The position numbers were made by a program, and so were the translations under genes. From contig OZ244840.1 in NCBI GenBank assembly GCA_965220725.1, positions 1,268,180-1,332,179 of the forward strand: a stretch of DNA of 64,000 nucleotides. Reading direction: 5' to 3'. How positions within the stretch are numbered: position 1 is the stretch's first letter; every line of letters starts with the position of its first letter. This DNA is from Arenicellales bacterium (GTDB taxonomy: Bacteria > Pseudomonadota > Gammaproteobacteria > Arenicellales > JAJDZL01). Below are positions 15,792-30,734 of the stretch, in pieces. The notes beneath the pieces were generated by a model. That model was given only the letters and a program-made list of their open reading frames with translations, was not told the origin of the DNA and searched no databases.

Positions 15792-16673
15792 GTGTTTGAA
15801 ACCACACGGAAATCACGCGCGAAACCCAGCTGTTTGCTGGCAATGGTGGCAATCCTGCTGGGGGTTGCTGCAGGCAGTGCCGTGGCTCAAGAGATCGACA
15901 TCGAGCAGACAGCCAACACGATCTTCAAGGCATTCACCAAGAACCATCAGCTTGAATCCGAACTGTCAGTGGACACGGATTCTGCCTTGGCGGTTCAGGA
16001 CTTCTACATCGCCCTGTTGCGTCCGACCTGGGGCATGGATGTGGGCTACGTATCCTCAGCGATGACTGGAAACTCAATACCCGCCGAGCCGATCACGGGT
16101 GTATTGCTTGAGAACATGTTTACCGGGACCCGGGCAGTGATCAACCGGACCTATGGCGTGCATATGCATGCATCTGCGGAGCTCCTGGTACGTGTCGGTT
16201 CAGATGACCTGAACGTTGCTGCCAGCAGGCAGGAGGCTTTGGAAGCCCTGAAGTCCGTGATCCCCGGTGTCCGTCTCACCGACGTCTTGATGGATGCGGA
16301 CAATCCGCGCGGACAGGCGGAGACTGCCGCAACCAATCTGGAAGTCAGGTTCTGTGTGCTCGGTGGCGAGTTGGAACTGGGTTCGGATACCGACTGGATC
16401 AGTCGGCTGGCGGATTTTTCCGCCGTGCTCTACGATCAGAACAAGGTCAAGATATTTGAATACCAAAACTCTGCATCCACCCATCCGCTGGATGCGGTGC
16501 TGCAGGTCCGGGATGCCTTGCATGCACGGGGCATCCTGCTACGCGAGGACGACATTCTGGCGCTGGGTGTGCTGACCGAGAGCGTTGCGGTTGAGGAGCT
16601 GACGCGGTTGCGGGCCGTGTTTCATGGCTTGTCCGACGAGGATCAGGTCTCGGTTTACATGGGATTTCAGTGA
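15792..16673 (+). CDS. Secreted protein with a 2-keto-4-pentenoate-hydratase/FAH-like pattern (tentative)
   Basis: Signal peptide CLLAMVAILLGVAAGSAVAQE. The overall motif order resembles the MhpD/HpcG family (G.DVGY.S, ...E.E...RVG.DL, ..NLE..F.VLGGE, ...L..GDILALG). No database confirmation. Confidence 0.4.
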   Translation: MFETTRKSRAKPSCLLAMVAILLGVAAGSAVAQEIDIEQTANTIFKAFTKNHQLESELSVDTDSALAVQDFYIALLRPTWGMDVGYVSSAMTGNSIPAEPITGVLLENMFTGTRAVINRTYGVHMHASAELLVRVGSDDLNVAASRQEALEALKSVIPGVRLTDVLMDADNPRGQAETAATNLEVRFCVLGGELELGSDTDWISRLADFSAVLYDQNKVKIFEYQNSASTHPLDAVLQVRDALHARGILLREDDILALGVLTESVAVEELTRLRAVFHGLSDEDQVSVYMGFQ

Positions 16674-16704: not shown

Positions 16705-17379
16705 GTGAGCTGCCGGGGGCTGATCATCGCAACCGGACCGTGGTCTCTGGCCTGCCAGCCCGTAACGGTGGCGTGCGACCGCGCTGAGTCAACCATTCAA
16801 ATTCCCCGTGTGTGTTTCACCATCGACATGTTGGTGACCGCTGGCATCACCAAAATCCTTCTCGGTACAACACCGCAAAACCTTGAAAGCTTCAGGAGCA
16901 TCCTGCTCGGATTCAAGGATTCAGGTGTTGAGATTTCCTACCTGTTGCTGCGCGATGAAGGCGTCTGTGAGGCACTCGCCGGTGGCCATGAATTTGCCGC
17001 GCAATCCAACTTCGCGATTGCACCGGCTGGCTTTTATTGTGAGGGGACTACCGGTGACCCATCCAGGCTGAGAACCGTGCTGGCGCACAGCCGGGGTGTT
17101 ACGGCGTTTCGGATGTCGGGTTGCCTTTCAAGCGAGGGCCAGACCATTCCCGAGCTGTTGGTAGTCGATGCGAGAGCACGTACCCGTTTACAGAAGATGG
17201 ACACCCGTGCCGTCACTGATTTCAGGGAACTGAGGAGATTCTGCGCGCTTCATTTCAGGTATTCTGAGGTGGACCTCCGGGGTTCCCACCGATTTGTCAG
17301 CCTGGCACAATGTCAGGCGATCGACAAGGCGTTCCCGGATTCTGAAGTGCTTGCAAGATTGGCGTCTGCCGGGTATTGA
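16705..17379 (+). CDS. Sugar-nucleotidyltransferase-like protein with a degenerate catalytic signature (tentative; GTG start)
   Basis: GLIIATGPWSLACQP.....ID.LV.AGI.KILLGTTPQ.L..F...L......GVEISYL mirrors the RmlA/GlmU N-termini. The G-x-G-T-R-L loop is replaced by GPWSLA. Coding status is itself uncertain. Confidence 0.35.
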   Translation: MSCRGLIIATGPWSLACQPVTVACDRAESTIQIPRVCFTIDMLVTAGITKILLGTTPQNLESFRSILLGFKDSGVEISYLLLRDEGVCEALAGGHEFAAQSNFAIAPAGFYCEGTTGDPSRLRTVLAHSRGVTAFRMSGCLSSEGQTIPELLVVDARARTRLQKMDTRAVTDFRELRRFCALHFRYSEVDLRGSHRFVSLAQCQAIDKAFPDSEVLARLASAGY

Positions 17380-17415
17380 CTGCGGCAGATCACAGGCTTT
17401 CGCCCGAAGCGACGG

Positions 17416-17799
17416 CTACAGACTGGAGATATAGTCGGAATAGCTGTCCTGCGTCATCAGGTCGCCAAACTCTGCCGGTTCGGACATCACCATTTTGCAG
17501 ACCCAGCCCTTATCGGTTGGACTGTCGTTGATCAGTTCAGGTGCGTCTTCCAGGTCGTGATTGAATTCAACAACCTCGCCGGATACAGGCGCAACAAACG
17601 GTACGGCCGCCTTGACCGACTCAACGATGGTCACCTCGTCCCCCAGGTTGTATTGGCCTCCCATATCAGGCACCTCTACAAACACGACATCGCCGACTTC
17701 ATTCTGACCGAACTCGGTCAGTCCTATGGTGACGATGTTCTCTTCGGCATCATCAACTCTGACCCATCTGTGATCATCTGAGTAGGCAATGTCGCTCAT
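17416..17799 (-). CDS. gcvH: Glycine cleavage system H protein (lipoyl carrier)
   Basis: 127 aa. Has the lipoyl-lysine motif VESVKA, plus GDVVFVE.P and KGW..K. Confidence 0.9.
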   Translation of the reverse strand: MSDIAYSDDHRWVRVDDAEENIVTIGLTEFGQNEVGDVVFVEVPDMGGQYNLGDEVTIVESVKAAVPFVAPVSGEVVEFNHDLEDAPELINDSPTDKGWVCKMVMSEPAEFGDLMTQDSYSDYISSL

Positions 17800-18439
17800 C
17801 CGGATTCCCTCATGGTTGAATTGTCATCAGTCGGTTGCAGAAACTGCAAGGCTTGTCCATCGTTTTGGAAGATGCGCCTCAAATCTGGCTGCAGTATTGC
17901 AAGTTGAACCGGTATGGATTGGCTAATCCATCCGTTAAACCGCTAATGATATTTCAAAGACAGCGTGCCAATTCTGGAATTTTGTGACATTTGATGGTTG
18001 GACTCAGCGAGGATTGATTGGCACTACGATCGATATCCGGATTCTGCAATCCGTAACCAATCCTCAAGAGCGAGATTCTGCATCTGCCCAATTTTTCCAC
18101 CGGGAATTTTGCCCAACCTGTATGTTGCTCAACCTGTGGAGTATCACCACCGGTGAATGGTACCTGGGATGCTGATACGGTGATTTCGCAATACCGATCA
18201 ATCAATGAATCAATCCCACAGACGGTTGAATCTGACTTTGATGGTTTAGGAATCTGTTGTGCTCGACTTTGAGTCGTTGATGTTCGCTTTGCGGACGCCA
18301 TCGAGCTGATGGAGGCAGAACCAGCCTCAGCCATGCAGCAGCTCTTCCGTATTGGCGCTTGAAATTCAGCGACCAAGAGGCTGAGTCACCGCAATCACAC
18401 GACATTGTGTCGGTCGCCGCAACAACGTTCATTCGTCGC

Positions 18440-19255
18440 ACGACGTTAGGTTGACTGATCTCGTTGATGTCGATCAACAGGCATCCGAAATCAACCGAAC
18501 CCTGTGGTGTTGTTTCAGTACGCTCGGGAACAGGTCAGTAAATTCGGCTCGACTGTCACCGCCCATCTAGCGAGCAAAGCGGGTTCAGTTTGTGTCATTC
18601 TCATCGGTTTTGCGTTGAAGCTTTCTAAACGAGTTCCGGCTGAGCTCCGTTACCCGGGCAATCTTCTCCAGATCCATGCCATCTAAAAAAGCTTCGCTGC
18701 AATTTCTACTCGAACCCCTACCCAGCCTTGTTCCCAGCCTTCCTTGCGAAGCTGTTCTGCGGCTGATTGAGTAATCTGTATTTCTCTCCGGATTTCTTCC
18801 CGACCTTGTTCCCGTCCTTCCTCGCGAATTTGTTCTGCGGCTGATTGAATCATCTATCTTTCCTCCGGTATTTCACCTTGCAGATTCAATTCGTCTTCCA
18901 AATTTACTGTCTGTATGGTAAGCACGGACATAACCCTTCCGGTTAGTTCAGCATCCTTGTCGAAACTGGATCAATCCACACTTAATCCAGTCGATCAGAA
19001 ATTCAACAAAGAGTTTAATTCACCAAGGCCTCTCGACAATTTGCGGACTACCGCGGCAAGTTTGTTTTGTCGAGAAAGACGACGCCGATCAATCTCACTG
19101 ATATTAAGCGGCAGGCACTGGAAACTCACCGACTACTGTTCCAGTGTTCCGCACCACCCTTTACGCAGAGCTGGGGGTTGGTTAGTGAACTCGGTTCGAT
19201 TGTCACCGCCCACACATCAAGTCTGGCAGCATCAGCGCCCTAAAGCCTCAACGAC
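18440..19255 (-). pseudogene. Two further, progressively degenerate copies of the rpn 3' segment plus its junction sequence
   Basis: Copy 2 (~18608-19110) keeps recognisable 3'-end homology (gatccatgccatct, ttctgcggctgattga) and the LIDVNEID-equivalent segment (19085-19110), but has stops and an internal 71-bp duplication. Copy 3 is only the segment gatctcgttgatgtcgatcaacagg at ~18445-18494. Junction copies lie at 19110-19255 and 18495-18607. Confidence 0.6.
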
Positions 19256-19654
19256 TTAGTGTTGAAGGCTTAGAACTGCGTCCCGGTTAAGATCAGTTAC
19301 CTCGGCAACCTTCTCCGGGTCCATGCCATCTCGGAGCAGATTCGTTGCGACTTTTACCCGTCCTTCTTGCCGGCCTCTTTTCCTACCTTCGTGCCGGTTT
19401 TCCTCCCAGGCTTCTTCCCTGCCTTCTTTCACACCTTCCTGGCGAAGGAATTCTACGGCTGACTGAAGTATCTGTCTTTCCTCCGAATTTCTTGCTTGCG
19501 CCAATATATCTTCCATGGGGATATCCTCATTACAATCGCTGAAAAGACCAATCATCAACCCGAATGCCCAAGCAAGATCCTCTGGTAGGATAGGTCCTCT
19601 CCGGTCCAGCACCTCCTGCACCAAAGAGAGTCTATCATCGCGCACTTTCGACAT
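19256..19654 (-). CDS. Stand-alone Rpn C-terminal-domain ORF (5'-truncated rpn paralogue, RpnS-like)
   Basis: 132 codons. By eye about 75 percent identical in aa and about 85 percent in nt to residues 197-312 of the adjacent full-length Rpn protein, plus an extra E/G/R-rich insert. Its ATG aligns with internal Met197 of the full-length gene. Homology continues upstream to ~19725 but is closed by stop codons. Confidence 0.6.
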   Translation of the reverse strand: MSKVRDDRLSLVQEVLDRRGPILPEDLAWAFGLMIGLFSDCNEDIPMEDILAQARNSEERQILQSAVEFLRQEGVKEGREEAWEENRHEGRKRGRQEGRVKVATNLLRDGMDPEKVAEVTDLNRDAVLSLQH

Positions 19655-19870
19655 CAAGTGGATTACCGCATTAATGTTGGTGTTCCGTACACGGCCCAGC
19701 CGATCGATCTAACTGACATCTAACGGCAGGTGCCGAAAGTTCACCGACAACTGTGCCAGTGCCCCGTAGCATTTGTTATGCAGAGTTAAGGATAGGTCAG
19801 TGAACTCAGTTCGACTGTCACTGTCCACACACCAAGTTTGGCTGAATCTGCTTCCAAAAGCTTCATCTGT

Positions 19871-20809
19871 TTAGCGTTGAAGTTTTTGAACTGCGTCCCG
19901 GCTAAGGTCAGTTACTTCGGCAACCTTTTCCGGATCCATGCCATCTCGGAGCAGATTCGCTGCGACTTCTTCCCGGACTTCTACCCGACCTTCTTCCCGA
20001 CCTTCCTGGCGAAGGAATTCTGCGGCTGATTGAAGCATCTGTCTTTCCTCCGAATTTCTTGCTTGCGCCAATATATCTCCCTTGGAGATATCCTCATTAT
20101 AATCGCTGAAATAACCAATCATCAACCCGTACGCCCACTCATGATCCTCTGGTGGGATAGTTCCTTTCCGGTCCAGCAACTCCTGCACCAAGGAGAGCCT
20201 TGCCTCGCGCACGTTCGACATCAAGTGGATTACCGTTTCAATGTTGGTGTCTCGTGCAAGGCCCAGCTGATCGATCTCGTTGACATCAATCAGCATGCAC
20301 TTGAAGTTCACCGAATATTCGGTCAGTATCGCCCGAAACTCGTCCGCGAGGTTCTTGTACAGGTCGATGAATTCGACCGGTGTAGTCTTGCGCGAGTTGG
20401 TGGAATCGGCGCGCGGGTCGTACTGAAGCACCACGATCGGAAGAATCGGTGACTTAAAATCGTTCTGCACGTGAATGAGGAACTGATTCCGGGCCACTTG
20501 CCGCAAAAGATTGGAGTCACGGTAGCTTTTGTGCTCGAACAGTAAAATCAGATGTATTACCTCGCCGCTGCCTTTGAGTTCAACGGAAAACACCAGGTCG
20601 GCGAATCTCTCAGGCAAGCCCGGGATTGCGATCTCGGTCGGCTGCAGGCTCAGCGTCGACCAGTCGATGAAGTCGGATAGATTGTCAGGAATACCAATAC
20701 GAATCAGGGTGATGACGTATTCAAGTCTTCGAAAGATGTCCTTGAAGAAACGGTCATGCAGACGTTCGGGGCGTTTGCCGGGTTCAATGGATGTATCAGA
20801 TTCTGCCAT
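19871..20809 (-). CDS. Rpn/YhgA-like recombination-promoting nuclease (PD-(D/E)xK, Transposase_31 family)
   Basis: HDRFFKDIF, FADLVFSVELKG, ILLFEHKS (D...E.K catalytic pattern). The C-terminal variable helical domain ends LLRDGMDPEKVAEVTDLSRDAV. Confidence 0.8.
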   Translation of the reverse strand: MAESDTSIEPGKRPERLHDRFFKDIFRRLEYVITLIRIGIPDNLSDFIDWSTLSLQPTEIAIPGLPERFADLVFSVELKGSGEVIHLILLFEHKSYRDSNLLRQVARNQFLIHVQNDFKSPILPIVVLQYDPRADSTNSRKTTPVEFIDLYKNLADEFRAILTEYSVNFKCMLIDVNEIDQLGLARDTNIETVIHLMSNVREARLSLVQELLDRKGTIPPEDHEWAYGLMIGYFSDYNEDISKGDILAQARNSEERQMLQSAAEFLRQEGREEGRVEVREEVAANLLRDGMDPEKVAEVTDLSRDAVQKLQR

Positions 20810-21131
20810 GTGTCAAACCCTCCTTTGCAGTTTCAATGGCTGTACGAATTGGAATTGGCGGTCGGGTATGATCAGGATCATCCACACCGCAGTCACGAGC
20901 AGTCTCTGCAACCGACTCCAGGTATCAATCAGCAAGGGCGTGATCTGAACCTGCCTTCGGTTGGTCGAAAGCACTGGAAATCCGGATAGTCTGAGTTGGA
21001 TTGGCTCGCCACGTTTCAGGTCCGTGAACCATGGGCGAGCTTTCTCAGCGCTTTCTGCCCTCCGTGAAATTGTATCTAATCTACGACAGGATCAAACACC
21101 TTTATTCAGCGATATTTGATTGGTATCGCGG

Positions 21132-21869
21132 TCAGTCTGTAGTTTCCGCGATCCGTGACAAACCCTGCAGAACGAGATCCGGTATATGCTCAAATGCCCG
21201 GTCGGAGTGCTGCTGCACCAGTGTTGCATCGCCACCGGTGATGAGCAGCCGGGATGCCGGTCCGGTCAACTCGCTGTATCGGTCGATCAGAAGTTCGATG
21301 CCACCGACAGCTGACGACAGTACGCCGCTTGAGACCGCCTCGATCGTTGACCGTGCCGGAATACTGGGTGTCAGCACAGGGACTTCTTCAATGCCTCTCG
21401 CTCGTCGGTGCAGGGATTCTTGCGCAAGCCGGATACCGGGCAGGATGGAACCGCCGAGGAACTCTCCTGCCGAAGACAGGGCATCAACGGTGATCGCGGT
21501 GCCGCAGTCCACGATGATGGTGGCGGTTCGGGTGATGTGCCAGGCACCGATGGCGGCTACCCAGCGGTCAGGGCCCAGCTGACGGGCCTGTCGATAGCAG
21601 TTTCTTACGCCGCATCTTTCGGATTCCGGAATAGCCTCGTCGGCCTGGATGCCCCATGTACTGCGCACCAGCGAGCAGAACCTTTGTGCGGTGTCGTGCC
21701 CGGTGACGTTGACAAAGAGCGCATGAGTCACCTGGTCCAAGGCCTCGAACTGTCTGGAAAAGTTGTCATCGAAATCCGTCAGCGATGACGGGAAGATGCC
21801 GTTTTCGTCGCCGACAGACCACTTGACATTCTGGTTTCCGATGTCAGTGAGCAGATACATGGCATTCAC
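21132..21869 (-). CDS. coaX: Type III pantothenate kinase
   Basis: YLLTDIGNQNVKW, IIVDCGTAITVDA, GGSILPG..L, ATL-type C-terminus. 245 aa. Confidence 0.9.
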   Translation of the reverse strand: MNAMYLLTDIGNQNVKWSVGDENGIFPSSLTDFDDNFSRQFEALDQVTHALFVNVTGHDTAQRFCSLVRSTWGIQADEAIPESERCGVRNCYRQARQLGPDRWVAAIGAWHITRTATIIVDCGTAITVDALSSAGEFLGGSILPGIRLAQESLHRRARGIEEVPVLTPSIPARSTIEAVSSGVLSSAVGGIELLIDRYSELTGPASRLLITGGDATLVQQHSDRAFEHIPDLVLQGLSRIAETTD

Positions 21870-21925: not shown

Positions 21926-23107
21926 TCAGCCGGCCTGCTGCCGGGCGATGTTTAGAAATTCGAGCAGGCCGATGACCTCGGTCTGCGCCGAAGACATGTA
22001 CCGTTTCCGCCCGGGATACACGATGAACTTTCTGGTGGCGCCGATATCCCTGCTGGCTGTATGATAGCCCCTTGATGCCGAGGGTGTGGCGGAGCGTTTG
22101 ATCTCAACCGCCCACAGGTCAGACTGCCCATTCGCCATCACCAGATCAATCTCGGCACCGGCTGTGGTGCGAAAGTAGGTGCACTTCCAACTGTCGGAAA
22201 CACAATTCAGAACGTTCTCGAGTACAAAGGATTCCCAGCTGGCACCGGCTGCGGCATGTGCGAGCAGCGACTTGAAATCCGGGATTTCAAGCAGTTCGTG
22301 GGTGATGCCCGAATCCCGAATGAATATTTTCGGTGCTGTGACCAGGTCTTCGTCAACCCTTCCCGACCAGGGTTCGATCTCGCGTACCATGTAGTGCTCA
22401 ACGAGCACGTTGAAGTAATGCCGCACGGCCTGGTGACTCAATCCAATATGTGCACCGAGCCGGATGAAGTTGACGTGCTGGGAGTGTCGATGCGCCAGCA
22501 ATCGCCACAGTTTGAACATGAACGCCGAGGAAACTTCGGCACCGAGTGACAGGATGTGATGCTCAACATGAGTCTGGATGTATTCCGACCTCCAGCCCTG
22601 ACTGCTGGCTTCGGAGTCAGCGAGATAGCTCTTCGGAAACCCGCCGCGCCACCATAGTCGGTCAACACAGTCTTCTGCTTGCTCGCCGGCACTGATCTCC
22701 AGTGCGTTGAGCGGCGCCATCTGCAGAATGTCGATGTCTGCAGCCAGCGGACGAGCCTGTTTTTGCAACAGTTGCTTTGGCGTCGAGCAGAACAGGAGAA
22801 ACTGCCCAACTGTTTCGCCGGCGCGCGATCGCGAGTTGATCAGCGCTTGCAGCTCATGAAACAGTTTCGGGGCAAGTTGCGCTTCGTCAATGATGACGAG
22901 ATGGTCGTGGACACGCTGTACCTGCAACAGCTTCGTCCAATCCGGGTCCGATGCGAGGTCGATATACGTGCAGGGCTTGGTCCATGTAGTTGCGATTTGC
23001 CGTGCCAGTGTTGTCTTGCCGGTCTGCCTGGGTCCAACTACAGCCACTGCAGGGACCGCACCCAGTGAGCGGAGGATGTCGGATTGGATGTTTCGCGTGA
23101 AATTCAT
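21926..23107 (-). CDS. AAA+ ATPase with a DUF4143 and PD-(D/E)xK-like C-terminal module (COG1373-type)
   Basis: Walker A VVGPRQTGKTTLARQI, Walker B LVIIDEAQ, RGGFP, DUF4143-like LGAHIGLSHQAVRHYFNVLVEHYMV, C-terminal AEIDLV....WAVEIKRS. Confidence 0.8.
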   Translation of the reverse strand: MNFTRNIQSDILRSLGAVPAVAVVGPRQTGKTTLARQIATTWTKPCTYIDLASDPDWTKLLQVQRVHDHLVIIDEAQLAPKLFHELQALINSRSRAGETVGQFLLFCSTPKQLLQKQARPLAADIDILQMAPLNALEISAGEQAEDCVDRLWWRGGFPKSYLADSEASSQGWRSEYIQTHVEHHILSLGAEVSSAFMFKLWRLLAHRHSQHVNFIRLGAHIGLSHQAVRHYFNVLVEHYMVREIEPWSGRVDEDLVTAPKIFIRDSGITHELLEIPDFKSLLAHAAAGASWESFVLENVLNCVSDSWKCTYFRTTAGAEIDLVMANGQSDLWAVEIKRSATPSASRGYHTASRDIGATRKFIVYPGRKRYMSSAQTEVIGLLEFLNIARQQAG

Positions 23108-25591: not shown

Positions 25592-25679
25592 GTCATTGCT
25601 AGTTGAACGGTGATCTTCAGGGAATAGTCTAAAATTGACTGTACACCGAATTAATTGATTCCGAGGGAGTAAACTGGGT

Positions 25680-27917
25680 TTGAATGAAATTGTAGTGCAA
25701 GATTCTGAACAGGGAGTCGGTGGTTTTGTCTGTGTCGCAATTCCGACTAAATTTCAAGATACATTTGACTATCGGTGTGACTCGCTTGAATCCGCCCCCG
25801 TCGGTAGTCGCGTCGTCGTTCCATTTGGCAAGGGCAATCGTCTGGGTGTCATCGTTGAGCACTCGCTCGAGTCGCAGGTGGACCCGGACAAAATTCGATC
25901 GATTCATTCCGTCACCGACCCTGACCCCGTGGTCGACTCAAGTCTTTTGCGCACGTTGCGATGGACTTCACAGTATTATCACCAGCCAATTGGCGAGGTA
26001 CTGTGGACGGCGCTACCCAAAGCCATAAGAATCGGCAGTGAAATGCAGCCGCGACTGGAATTGGGCTATCGGCTGAGTGAGGCCGGTTCGGCAACGGATC
26101 CGAAATCGCTCGCGCGGGCAAAGATGCAGTTGGCAATCTTCGAGCTGCTCAAGTCCGCTGATCGACCGCTGTCCAGAGAGGAGATCAGTGCTGTCAGCGG
26201 GGGTTGGCAGAATGCGCTTCGACAACTCATCAGCAAACAGCTGGTGGTCGCCGAACCACTTGTTGAGGGCAACGGATTGAGCACACCTAAGCTGATCGAA
26301 AATCTGACTGAGCCCCAGGTCAACGCCTGTGACCGGATCACCGCGGCACTCGACCGCTTCAAGTGCTTTCTGATTCATGGCGTCACCGGCAGTGGCAAGA
26401 CCGAAGTTTATCTGCAGGTCATCTACAAGGTGCTGCAAGACGGTGGACAGGCCCTGATCCTGGTACCCGAAATCGGCTTGACGCCACAGTTGGAGGAGCG
26501 CGTCAGCCGGGCGCTCGGTGTCACGGTTTCCTGCTTCCATTCCGGAATGACGGATCCCCAGCGACATAAGACGTGGTGGAACGCACGCACAGGAAACGCG
26601 CGCGTCGTGATCGGTACCCGGTCGGCTGTCTTTCTTCCGTTCAGGAAGCTGGCCATGATTGTGATCGATGAGGAGCATGACGCGTCCTTCAAGCAGAATG
26701 AAAGCGTGCGTTACCATGCCCGCGCAGTTGCGATTCACCGGGCAGCCAACAGCAACATTCCATTGATCTTCGGCACCGCCACGCCATCAATCGAGACAAT
26801 CCATGCTGGAGCAACCGGCCGACTTGAAACGATCAGCCTGCCCGAACGCGCCACGAAAATCCAGATGCCTTCCATCAGGCTGGTTGATCTTGGACGGACT
26901 TTCGTCCGAAACGGTATCGCGGTGGAAATCTTCAGCGAGATCGAGAAGCGGATCCGGCGCGGTGAGCAGAGCCTGATTTTCCTCAATCGCCGGGGCTTTG
27001 CACCGGTCAGTATCTGCATGGACTGCAAGTGGGTGGCCAAGTGCAACAACTGCGACGTCAACCTGAATTTCCATGCGTCCGACCAGCTGCTTCACTGCCA
27101 TCACTGTTTTGCCAGATATCCGATTCCGCAGAACTGCCCGGACTGCATGTCGGACCGAATCAGTCAACTGGGCGAGGGAACACAGCAGATCGAGCGGGTG
27201 CTCAAGCATGAGCTGGCCGGCGCCCGTGTGATGAGGATTGATCGGGACACCACCAAATCCTATGCTGAATTCCAAAGAAAATTCGAACGGATCCGCAACG
27301 GCGAGGTGGACGTACTGGTTGGTACTCAGATGGTATCCAAGGGGCACGACTTCCCCAATGTCACCCTGGTCTGCATCCTCAATACCGATCAGAGCTTTTT
27401 CAGCATGGATTTTCGGGCAACCGAGCACATGGTTCAGCAGATCTTGCAGGTTGCGGGACGCTCCGGCCGCTTCGAGAAACCAGGCGTTGTGCTCATACAG
27501 ACCATGTTTCCAGAGCACGAGGTATTCACCTATCTCAAGCGCCACGATTATCTTCAGTTCACCGAGACCGAAATCAGGCAGAGAAAACTGGCCCGGCAAC
27601 CGCCATTTGCCCACTACGTGCTGTTGCGGACAAGTTCCCCTAAAATGGGACACGAATTCAGGTTTCTGAACGCCGCACATGCCGACGCGATGCAAATGGT
27701 TCGAGGTCATTCATGGTCGGGCATACGGGTATTTGATATAGTACAGTCTCCGATACAGAAGATTTCCAACCGCTACCGCGCACAGCTCCTCGTTTCCGGA
27801 GAGACCCCGAAACTGTTGAGGCAGTTTGTCGCAATGTGGATGCCGAAACTGGAGAAAATCTCCAAGAAGGGTCAGGTGCGTTGGAGTCTGGATGTTGATC
27901 CCATCGACTTTTCGTAA
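25680..27917 (+). CDS. priA: Primosomal replication protein N' (PriA helicase)
   Basis: GVTGSGKTEVY, VIDEEHD, Cys-rich zinc insertion C..C.....C..C......L.CH.C, GTQMVSKGHDFPNVTLV. Confidence 0.93.
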   Translation: MNEIVVQDSEQGVGGFVCVAIPTKFQDTFDYRCDSLESAPVGSRVVVPFGKGNRLGVIVEHSLESQVDPDKIRSIHSVTDPDPVVDSSLLRTLRWTSQYYHQPIGEVLWTALPKAIRIGSEMQPRLELGYRLSEAGSATDPKSLARAKMQLAIFELLKSADRPLSREEISAVSGGWQNALRQLISKQLVVAEPLVEGNGLSTPKLIENLTEPQVNACDRITAALDRFKCFLIHGVTGSGKTEVYLQVIYKVLQDGGQALILVPEIGLTPQLEERVSRALGVTVSCFHSGMTDPQRHKTWWNARTGNARVVIGTRSAVFLPFRKLAMIVIDEEHDASFKQNESVRYHARAVAIHRAANSNIPLIFGTATPSIETIHAGATGRLETISLPERATKIQMPSIRLVDLGRTFVRNGIAVEIFSEIEKRIRRGEQSLIFLNRRGFAPVSICMDCKWVAKCNNCDVNLNFHASDQLLHCHHCFARYPIPQNCPDCMSDRISQLGEGTQQIERVLKHELAGARVMRIDRDTTKSYAEFQRKFERIRNGEVDVLVGTQMVSKGHDFPNVTLVCILNTDQSFFSMDFRATEHMVQQILQVAGRSGRFEKPGVVLIQTMFPEHEVFTYLKRHDYLQFTETEIRQRKLARQPPFAHYVLLRTSSPKMGHEFRFLNAAHADAMQMVRGHSWSGIRVFDIVQSPIQKISNRYRAQLLVSGETPKLLRQFVAMWMPKLEKISKKGQVRWSLDVDPIDFS

Positions 27918-29789: not shown

Positions 29790-30734
29790 TTGATGGCGCA
29801 AACCAAAATGCGGATGTTCGGCACGAAGGAGCGGGTCGGATACAACTCCGATGAGTTCTATCAGCGGAGAATTCACGCAAAAATGCCGCCCGCAGGTGAT
29901 TCTGCATCCAGTGAACAGTCCGTACCGGATTGTGTGCTGAACAGGATATTCGGGCACTCCAGTGAGACCATGCACGAGTTGCCCGATGACAGCGTGCATC
30001 TGATGGTCACCTCACCACCCTATAATGTGGGCAAGGATTACGACGATGATCTCACTCAGCAGGAATACATGGAACTGTTGACGAATGTCTGGCGGGAAAC
30101 TTACAGGGTGCTGGCTCCGGGTGGCAGGGCGTGCATCAATGTGGCGAATCTGGGCCGCAAACCCTACATTCCACTCAATGCCCTGATCACGGGAGAAATG
30201 CTCAAGCTTGGATTTTTGATGCGCGGTGAGATTATCTGGAACAAGGCAGCCAGTGCTGGTGCGTCCTGTGCCTGGGGCAGTTGGAAGAATCCGGCAAATC
30301 CGGTCTTGCGCGATGTTCACGAGTACATCATGGTTTTCTGCAAGCAGGAATTCTCAAGACGCAAGCCAACGGATGATTCCAAATCGCCGACGATTACCAA
30401 GGACGAATTCCTGGACTCGACCAAGAGTGTGTGGAACTTTCCAGCAGAGTCGGCGAGGCGTGTTGGCCATCCCGCACCGTTTCCGCTGGCGCTGCCCACC
30501 CGTCTCATCGAGCTGTATACGTACTCCAATGATGTTGTGCTTGATCCGTTCATGGGGTCTGGAACCACTGCAGTCGCTGCTGTTCGTTCCCGGCGACACT
30601 TTGTCGGTTACGAAATCTCAAACGAATATATCGAGGTGGCTGAGCGAAGAGTGCAAAGGGAGGTCAATGAGTCCTCAGTCCAGCCGCAGTTGTCCATGGC
30701 GTTCAGCAGTCCCGGACAGTCGGCGACGGCATGA
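29790..30734 (+). CDS. Solitary beta-class DNA methyltransferase (N6_N4_Mtase family, SPPY motif IV; likely N4-cytosine)
   Basis: Motif IV LMVTSPPYNVGKDY comes before motif I VLDPFMGSGTTAVAA (beta permutation). No adjacent endonuclease ORF. Confidence 0.85.
   Translation: MMAQTKMRMFGTKERVGYNSDEFYQRRIHAKMPPAGDSASSEQSVPDCVLNRIFGHSSETMHELPDDSVHLMVTSPPYNVGKDYDDDLTQQEYMELLTNVWRETYRVLAPGGRACINVANLGRKPYIPLNALITGEMLKLGFLMRGEIIWNKAASAGASCAWGSWKNPANPVLRDVHEYIMVFCKQEFSRRKPTDDSKSPTITKDEFLDSTKSVWNFPAESARRVGHPAPFPLALPTRLIELYTYSNDVVLDPFMGSGTTAVAAVRSRRHFVGYEISNEYIEVAERRVQREVNESSVQPQLSMAFSSPGQSATA

Follow-up and report, generated by a model that had tools for sequence, protein, structure and literature searches.

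The rpn gene and its array of partial copies

The locus described here comprises an rpn gene and the repeated sequence downstream of it in an Arenicellales bacterium (GenBank assembly GCA_965220725.1, contig OZ244840.1). The window, i.e. the whole stretch of 64,000 nt that was analysed, spans positions 1,268,180 to 1,332,179 of the forward strand, and coordinates are numbered from its first letter. A sequence-only reading, made by a model from the letters and their open reading frames (ORFs), had described an intact 312-codon Rpn/YhgA-type nuclease gene followed head-to-tail by recurrences of its last ~450 nt. Both elements were borne out, the gene by matches to PF04754 and TIGR01784 and the recurrences by self-blastn and a search with a unit profile. 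The features of the locus are collected in Table 1. Taken together, they probably represent a defence gene of the Rpn toxin-antitoxin type followed by an array in which its 3' end is partially duplicated in tandem.

Table 1. Features of the rpn locus, with positions in the window and the basis of each assignment.
Feature	Position	Strand	Basis
rpn gene, RpnL-type PD-(D/E)xK nuclease, 312 aa	19871..20809	minus	PF04754, TIGR01784
Predicted RpnS-equivalent internal frame, M258 to stop, 55 aa	19871..20038	minus	Shine-Dalgarno (SD) motif and ATG, alignment to E. coli RpnES/YpaA
Four-amino-acid repeat zone of the expressed tail (REEG RVEV REEV)	19964..19999	minus	sister-strain indel
Candidate internal promoter, sigma-70-like hexamer pair TTGATG-18-TATAAT	20096..20125	minus	consensus scan, 10/12 matches
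Unit 1, codons 166-312 plus junction 1	19748..20314	minus	self-blastn; unit profile E=1e-168
Junction 1, non-coding spacer carried by each unit	19748..19870	minus	junction profile E=1.5e-28
Unit 2, full-length tail copy plus junction 2 (19134-19255)	19134..19747	minus	unit profile E=1.5e-165
Unit 3, older tail copy with 78-nt internal duplication (18718-18874) and junction 3 (18493-18584)	18495..19133	minus	profile E=6e-75, 1.5e-74
Unit 4 stub, ~44 first codons of a unit only (VDFGCLLIDINEIS...), 132 nt	18367..18498	minus	nhmmer

Self-blastn aligned 20314-19699 with 19747-19084 at 76.5% identity over 664 columns (E=4e-153). Units 1 and 2 are 87% identical over their first ~300 nt, and the sole indel between them is an insertion of 48 nt in unit 2. 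The third unit, in which the internal duplication lies, was tied in by weaker matches. Ten units from three arrays were combined in a profile to set the unit limits, and this placed the units on the minus strand at 20314-19749, 19747-19134 and 19132-18495 and the stub at 18498-18367. The stub matched profile positions 1-132 with nhmmer (E=1.6e-14; E=1.2e-12 against the whole window). No further copies were detected with the unit profile anywhere else in the 64-kb window, and nothing recognisable as a decayed further unit lies between the stub (18367) and gcvH (17799).

One unit of 570-650 nt consists of rpn codons 166-312 (~147 codons) and a junction of ~110-123 nt. The stop-equivalent positions (19871, 19256 and ~18610) and the resulting periods of 615 and ~646 had been given correctly, and the start-to-start distance of units 1 and 2 is 567. 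Fourfold occurrence of a LIDVNEID-type (LIDxNEI) segment, threefold occurrence of the junction (E=1e-23 to 1e-28 against the junction profile) and a fall in similarity with distance from the gene were likewise supported. The junction is shorter than the ~146 nt proposed, the limits of which had taken in ~23 nt of the next unit. Whole 570-650-nt units align by self-blastn, not merely the zone of E/G/R repeats, which disposes of low complexity as the source of the similarity. The unit boundary falls at TEY|SVNFKC, where helix 156-166 ends and shortly ahead of the final strand of the nuclease fold (172-175) in an AlphaFold2 (AF2) model. Amplification had been thought to involve only the C-terminal domain; only the 3' part is indeed reiterated, but it starts at codon 166, inside the Pfam nuclease envelope (aa 18-210). 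The reiterated part does hold the hypervariable region, as it contains the helix with the four-amino-acid repeats.

The array is not a product of assembly. Logan unitigs from two runs of different studies covered 17400-21200 with zero differences from the window, the depth in the deep run (X1) was even across the units (151, 141, 136 and 154), and unitig breaks were confined to short stretches common to units 1 and 2. The units are 15-30% diverged, and each is therefore unique in an assembly. Between coaX and gcvH, units, junctions and stub were laid out identically in the independently assembled locus of a sister strain (L001; ENA ERZ25072236 contig_3), which is 96.4% identical over 7.4 kb. 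This locus was reached through a 94% identical protein (P0001), exact-protein look-up having returned no protein identical to the window Rpn. These observations settle the concern of the sequence-only reading that a repeat had been mis-joined or expanded, an explanation which we regard as next to impossible.

The predicted Rpn protein and its internal RpnS frame

Known rpn genes encode a toxic nuclease, RpnL (Zhong et al. 2023, PMC10400941; commentary PMC10400984), that is neutralised by RpnS, a small C-terminal protein made from an internal start in the same gene (PMC10400941). The first helix of RpnS contains four-amino-acid repeats whose number varies between strains, and a mismatch of one repeat abolishes neutralisation in E. 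coli (PMC10400941). Some loci have a separate second gene for RpnS (rpnSs) downstream, such as ypaA after rpnE; such genes derive from their own rpn gene, may be lost or become fused to the N-terminal part, and in E. coli cluster with their own upstream gene (PMC10400941).

By sequence and predicted structure, the rpn locus of the window belongs to the Rpn family. The ORF matched PF04754 (Transposase_31/YhgA-like) over aa 18-210 (E=1.8e-16; 60.8 bits with a cutoff of 21). The catalytic PD-(D/E)xK residues are present, D71 and E92-H93-K94 being invariant in an alignment of 25 homologs. In the AF2 model (mean pLDDT 78.8, pTM 0.72) these residues were located on central strands E72-78 and E84-92, and the tail was modelled as three helices, one long (253-288) and two short (293-300 and 304-311). 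RpnE of E. coli K-12 aligned end to end with 24% identity (E=2e-9). A Foldseek search of the PDB with the model produced only weak matches to restriction-type PD-(D/E)xK nucleases (E about 0.02) and did not recover the RpnAS crystal structure; a sequence search of the PDB with Rpn gave no match.

An internal start at M258 is predicted to yield a small RpnS protein. A GGAGGA motif at 20051-20046 is spaced 7 nt from the ATG at 20038 (reading agaaattcGGAGGAaagacagATG). M258 is nearly invariant among the 25 homologs and aligns no more than two residues from the start of E. coli RpnES/YpaA. The 55-aa frame corresponds to the long helix and both short helices. YpaA matched the window tail by BLASTP (37% identity, E=3e-6), and PF27070 (HTH_Rpn_C) was flagged on homologs and on small downstream ORFs. 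Between the sister strain and the window there is a difference of exactly 12 nt, i.e. one repeat, due to an indel at 19994 in the repeat zone, and the repeat segments of 18 RpnS frames differed in length by multiples of 4 aa in most pairs. The candidate internal promoter sits 58 nt upstream of the RpnS start; promoter and terminator scans of the region returned no more sites than expected from shuffled sequence, and the hexamer pair is therefore a weak lead only. The locus bears the sequence hallmarks of a putative RpnL/RpnS pair with an rpnSs arrangement.

Condition of the downstream copies in the window

Unit 2 keeps its reading frame over the full length apart from one TAG (19709-19711), its additional 48 nt representing four extra repeats. 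The order of decay was corrected in this respect: unit 2 contains a single in-frame stop and no frameshift, and unit 3 is the stop-riddled copy. The position of the RpnS start in unit 2 is occupied by ATA (19469-19471), or by ATC in the sister strain, with GGAGGA kept. An open frame of 133 aa runs over 19256-19657, and an alternative ATG (19514-19516), 15 codons upstream, opens an 86-aa frame whose equivalent was called as a gene in the sister strain, with HTH_Rpn_C flagged weakly. Compared with unit 1, the upstream part of unit 2 had a dN/dS of 1.15, indicating neutrality, and the RpnS part had one of 0.51 (0.24 in the sister strain); these and all later dN/dS values derive from short sequences, with S of about 40 sites per pair.

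Unit 3 has many stops in its upstream part and retains GGAGGA and an ATG at 18853. Its frame (18853..18683) stops after 56 aa through a 1-nt deletion near 18688; in the sister strain the frame is intact and encodes 89 aa. Units 2 and 3 each carry a same-strand small gene downstream of rpn that is most similar to the tail of their own rpn gene, as do rpnSs loci. The description of the units as decaying copies is fair for this locus, because the canonical start is gone from unit 2, unit 3 has a frameshift and only a stub is left of unit 4; the copies here are on their way out.

Junctions and the origin of the units

The three window junctions (19748-19870, 19134-19255 and 18493-18584) are homologous to those of two other arrays, L030 and L114 (67-73% identity, z=10-19). 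The same join, ggcacagtNgtcggtgaac, occurs in these three arrays and recurs between all units; protein identity among the genes of the arrays is only 46-61%. Within the junction there is a decayed copy of the last helices of the tail (RTEFTDLS versus EVTDLS), which is clearest in L030 (LTDLSPDSVDRV versus LTDLSPDAVQKL). This junction was found neither behind tail-less relatives nor behind the terminal unit of L030 and L114, nor anywhere else in the window. Three other identities for it were considered and rejected: a generic 3' flank of rpn, given its absence after tail-less relatives and the last L030 and L114 units; a dispersed repeat or mobile element, given its presence between units only; and a structured RNA, the consensus fold having an energy of only -4.7 kcal/mol and the window being without an Rfam match.

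The nearest relative of every copy was a unit of its own array, with a mean identity of 0.77 within and 0.52 between arrays. Because junction and join are common to arrays whose genes have diverged this far, either the founding duplication is old or whole arrays have spread together; unequal crossover or conversion would then keep units alike within an array. Three loci with other junctions (L115, L031 and L112) imply several founding events. The break in L115 (4485-5900), at YSV|NF, lies within about four codons of the type seen at window 20314, L030:5482 and L114:4494. A common breakpoint despite unrelated junctions suggests either a preferred site of breakage or a constraint on the content of a viable unit.

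Units do recombine, as the first unit of a second sister-strain locus (L002) is a mosaic of L030 units 1 and 3 and the repeat indel of the sister strain amounts to 12 nt. Repeated unequal crossover had been one of the origins proposed by the sequence-only reading, and tandem duplication with unequal crossover is the simplest generator of the array. No exchange of units was observed at this locus between the window and the sister strain, which share the same unit order and differ in it only by the 12-nt indel. Rearranged joints did not appear in the unitigs, which cannot show rare variants, and no recombinase or specific recombination site was evident. The locus thus lacks the pairing of observed exchange with a dedicated site or enzyme by which silent-cassette and shufflon systems are recognised.

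Tail copies at related loci and signs of selection

The distribution of tail copies was examined in a close-clade sample of nine rpn loci with 46-94% protein identity, several of which are paralogs in the window genome or the sister strain, and in a background sample of distant Rpn relatives with 22-44% identity from scans of genome and metagenome contigs. One to three downstream tail copies were present in seven of the nine close-clade loci. Tail copies or tandems were found in only 4 of 59 distant loci, two of them being of the rpnSs type and two whole-gene tandems (full tandem rpn genes in L026 and L038). The array of the window is therefore no isolated case, given the tails at seven of nine related loci and a junction and join that three arrays have in common. 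One of the rpnSs-type loci belongs to an Arcicella sp. metagenome-assembled genome (Bacteroidota; L025:4932-6420), in which a 317-aa rpn gene is followed by three same-strand ORFs of 52, 60 and 48 aa homologous to its tail; multi-copy small-tail arrays thus also occur outside this clade.

Signs of selection were sought by comparing the parts of the units. Among 26 units from 10 loci, nearly all retained GGAGGA and the start, which is ATG in 24. A tally of 13 downstream units (two being orthologous sister-strain pairs) found the part upstream of RpnS (~92 codons) to be broken by stops, frameshifts or deletions in every one, whereas the RpnS frame was open with an ATG in nine, mostly behind an intact GGAGGAA. 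When restricted to independent units with an upstream part (n=8), disruption affected 8/8 upstream parts versus 2/8 RpnS parts (Fisher one-sided p about 0.004). The pooled dN/dS of the RpnS parts was about 0.37 for gene versus copies and ranged from 0.22 to 0.49 for copy versus copy at pS of 0.2-0.45.

A natural deletion provides a further comparison. At L002:6001-7113 (ENA ERZ25072236 contig_3), which is syntenic with L030, the nuclease part of the paralog has been deleted in the sister strain. Homology begins at codon ~155, near the unit boundary, and a pair of RpnS frames of 60 and 63 aa survives intact, with SD motifs. The simplest reading of these data is that selection may be maintaining small RpnS genes and not the remainder of the unit; the conserved, selected element is apparently the small RpnS frame with its own SD and ATG rather than the whole C-terminal domain. 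Rpn loci in the window genome and sister strain are gained and lost quickly, and one rpn paralog of the window genome (P0025, 230 aa, on the 2.94-Mb contig that holds the window) is apparently truncated after residue ~225 relative to the intact P0008/L032 in the sister strain.

Interpretation of the array and alternative explanations

We favour, with moderate confidence, a toxin-antitoxin type defence gene accompanied by tandem 3'-end duplicates. Units would arise by tandem duplication and then be multiplied and reshuffled through unequal crossover between units. Selection would keep a small RpnS-type (rpnSs) gene in each unit while the remainder decays, so that the copies would be retained alternative or former tails. 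Such copies could recombine with the expressed gene to change the toxin-antitoxin pairing, or could act on other partners. The length of the variable helix segment in the expressed tail was the same as that of its own downstream copy in none of ten comparisons, most differences being multiples of four residues. As these repeat lengths differ, and a one-repeat mismatch abolishes neutralisation in the published system, the copies are predicted to be non-cognate to the resident toxin. By analogy with E. coli they are probably not extra antidote for it, and selection for dosage of the C-terminal domain, one of the earlier suggestions, is unlikely because no copy shares the repeat length of the expressed tail.

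Several observations count against the favoured explanation. Neither of the two full copies in the window has a canonical intact RpnS gene, one having an ATA start and the other a frameshift. The dN/dS values carry the weakness of their short alignments, and an appearance of constraint could also stem from gene conversion by the functional gene. The match of the ORF to TIGR01784 (Rpn family recombination-promoting nuclease; E=1.4e-12) reached 48 bits, below the curated cutoff of 52.1, and no PADLOC 2.0 model matched the Rpn protein. None of the RNA runs searched for the locus holds it. Toxicity, neutralisation and phage defence are, moreover, putative properties extrapolated from E. coli proteins that are ~24% identical.

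The best-surviving alternative, although still unlikely, is that the units are neutral debris left over from duplication, the intact small frames of sister arrays reflecting youth or repair by gene conversion from the expressed gene. The ATA or ATC start of unit 2, the frameshift of unit 3, the stub and the neutral evolution of the upstream part of unit 2 are what such debris would look like, and clustering of units by array is what conversion would give. Youth or conversion should, however, protect the upstream part equally, yet this part is broken in every downstream unit whereas most RpnS frames remain open, and the copy-versus-copy dN/dS values stand below neutrality. The copies also have repeat lengths unlike that of the gene and hence have not simply been overwritten by it, the junction and join common to three arrays with such divergent genes imply long persistence, and the two L002 RpnS frames have outlasted the deletion of their nuclease.

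A second alternative, which we consider quite unlikely, is a cassette reservoir in which the units serve as recombination donors that switch repeat length, and with it pairing, to escape a phage inhibitor, in the manner of pilE/pilS or rhs/cdiA tips. The unlike repeat length of every copy, the L002 mosaic unit and the ~270 nt of homology upstream of RpnS in each unit, a good crossover substrate, would all suit this function. That homology arm is, however, decaying or deleted in several arrays, and ribosome-binding sites and start codons have been kept, which silent cassettes do not need. Between the window and the sister strain no switching was seen, neither a recombinase nor a specific site could be discerned, and the junction consensus folds weakly (-4.7 kcal/mol). 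The architecture of an expressed gene with partial cassettes put forward by the sequence-only reading was accordingly not demonstrated, as the copies carry translation signals and no switching was seen at the locus.

Serial displacement by horizontally imported tails, each pushing its predecessor downstream as in rhs/cdiA, is very improbable: identities of 70-85% between units versus 96% between sister strains mean that the copies are old or were already diverged on arrival, and the last unit of L030 and L114 has no junction, but the nearest relative of each copy lies in its own array, none coming from another locus or genome, and the same join stands between all units, as unequal crossover predicts.

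A more far-reaching reading is speculative, and we give it little credence. The arrays might constitute a built-in device for switching specificity, in which each unit would store an alternative repeat length with its matched antidote and one crossover would be enough to re-key the pair. Cuts made by Rpn itself close to the recurrent breakpoint at codon ~162-166 could trigger the switch, the cell would gain by escaping phage-encoded mimics of RpnS, and the long-lived junction and join common to three arrays would belong to this device instead of being debris.

Rpn genes are widespread and have recently been recognised as defence toxins checked by a small protein from the same gene; the diversification of the repeats and the reason for extra small copies were questions raised by the original Rpn paper. 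This uncultured gammaproteobacterial clade offers a natural series, with one to three extra copies, a repeat-length mismatch in every array examined and one strain in which the small genes have outlived the nuclease. Such a series makes it testable whether copies are antidotes, decoys or spare parts, whether pairing depends on repeat length outside E. coli and whether copies recombine with the expressed gene. For annotation, ORFs of 50-90 aa after rpn are rpnSs candidates and the flanking homology is pseudogenic.

Genomic neighbourhood

The neighbourhood of rpn consists mostly of housekeeping genes (coaX, gcvH, gyrB, priA and argS). GyrB of this genome is 73% identical to that of an Acidiferrobacterales metagenome-assembled genome, which makes the host an uncultured gammaproteobacterium. 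An AAA_14/DUF4143 ATPase gene (21926-23107, minus), located 1.1 kb upstream of rpn on the far side of coaX, matched the PADLOC candidate defence family PDC-S01 (E=3e-68). Past argS there is an N6/N4 DNA methylase gene (29790-30734, plus; PF01555, E=9e-48). Downstream of gcvH, two plus-strand ORFs (15792-16673 and 16705-17379; 293 and 224 aa) had no Pfam match; their counterparts in the sister strain, which were called as genes, are 98-99% conserved. The alignment of the window with L001 extends to 23200. At L001:267-2967, genes for a cytosine-type DNA methylase (PF00145) and a HATPase_c_3 protein adjoin a fructosamine kinase gene, where the window (~25600-25700) has priA; this pair may be a strain-specific insertion.

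Comparison with known systems

In rhs and cdiA loci, a long expressed gene is followed by 5'-truncated variable C-terminal tips, each with cognate protection and an upstream homology arm. These orphan tips are usually foreign and highly diverse. The window resembles such loci in having an expressed long gene and then 5'-truncated copies of its variable end with upstream homology arms, and differs from them in that the copies come from its own gene and the putative antidote is the tail itself, from an internal start, rather than the product of a separate gene. Comparable repeats are known from the HsdS subunits of EcoR124I and EcoR124II, in which TAEL repeats set the spacing of the DNA target, as cited in PMC10400941; those of Rpn presumably set the pairing of long and short proteins. 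The tandem rpn arrays depicted in SI Fig. S1B of PMC10400941 are alike in being tandem direct duplications and not transpositions, but consist of whole genes, whereas the window repeats the 3' part only and has no second nuclease domain.

The closest likeness is to rpnE-ypaA (rpnESs) and rpnC-rpnCSs of E. coli. Both have a PD-(D/E)xK nuclease with a three-helix tail, an internal SD and ATG are found at the position equivalent to that in rpnE, the first-helix repeats of four amino acids vary between strains as in E. coli rpn genes, and the downstream tail copy is on the same strand and derived from its own gene. In K-12, ypaA has one extra repeat relative to the gene, and the window copies likewise differ mostly by whole repeats. 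The duplicated piece of K-12 is ~180 nt long (SD and RpnS only) and present once, 12 nt past the stop, whereas the window unit measures 570-650 nt, starts within the nuclease fold at 92 codons before RpnS and includes a junction of ~120 nt. The window unit is, in addition, reiterated two to three times in an array that ends in a stub, and the same junction and join persist in three paralogous arrays. No description of multi-copy rpnSs arrays was found in the literature searched. The layout is nevertheless not new in kind, because the rpnSs architecture of E. coli, with ypaA after rpnE, has already been published (PMC10400941).

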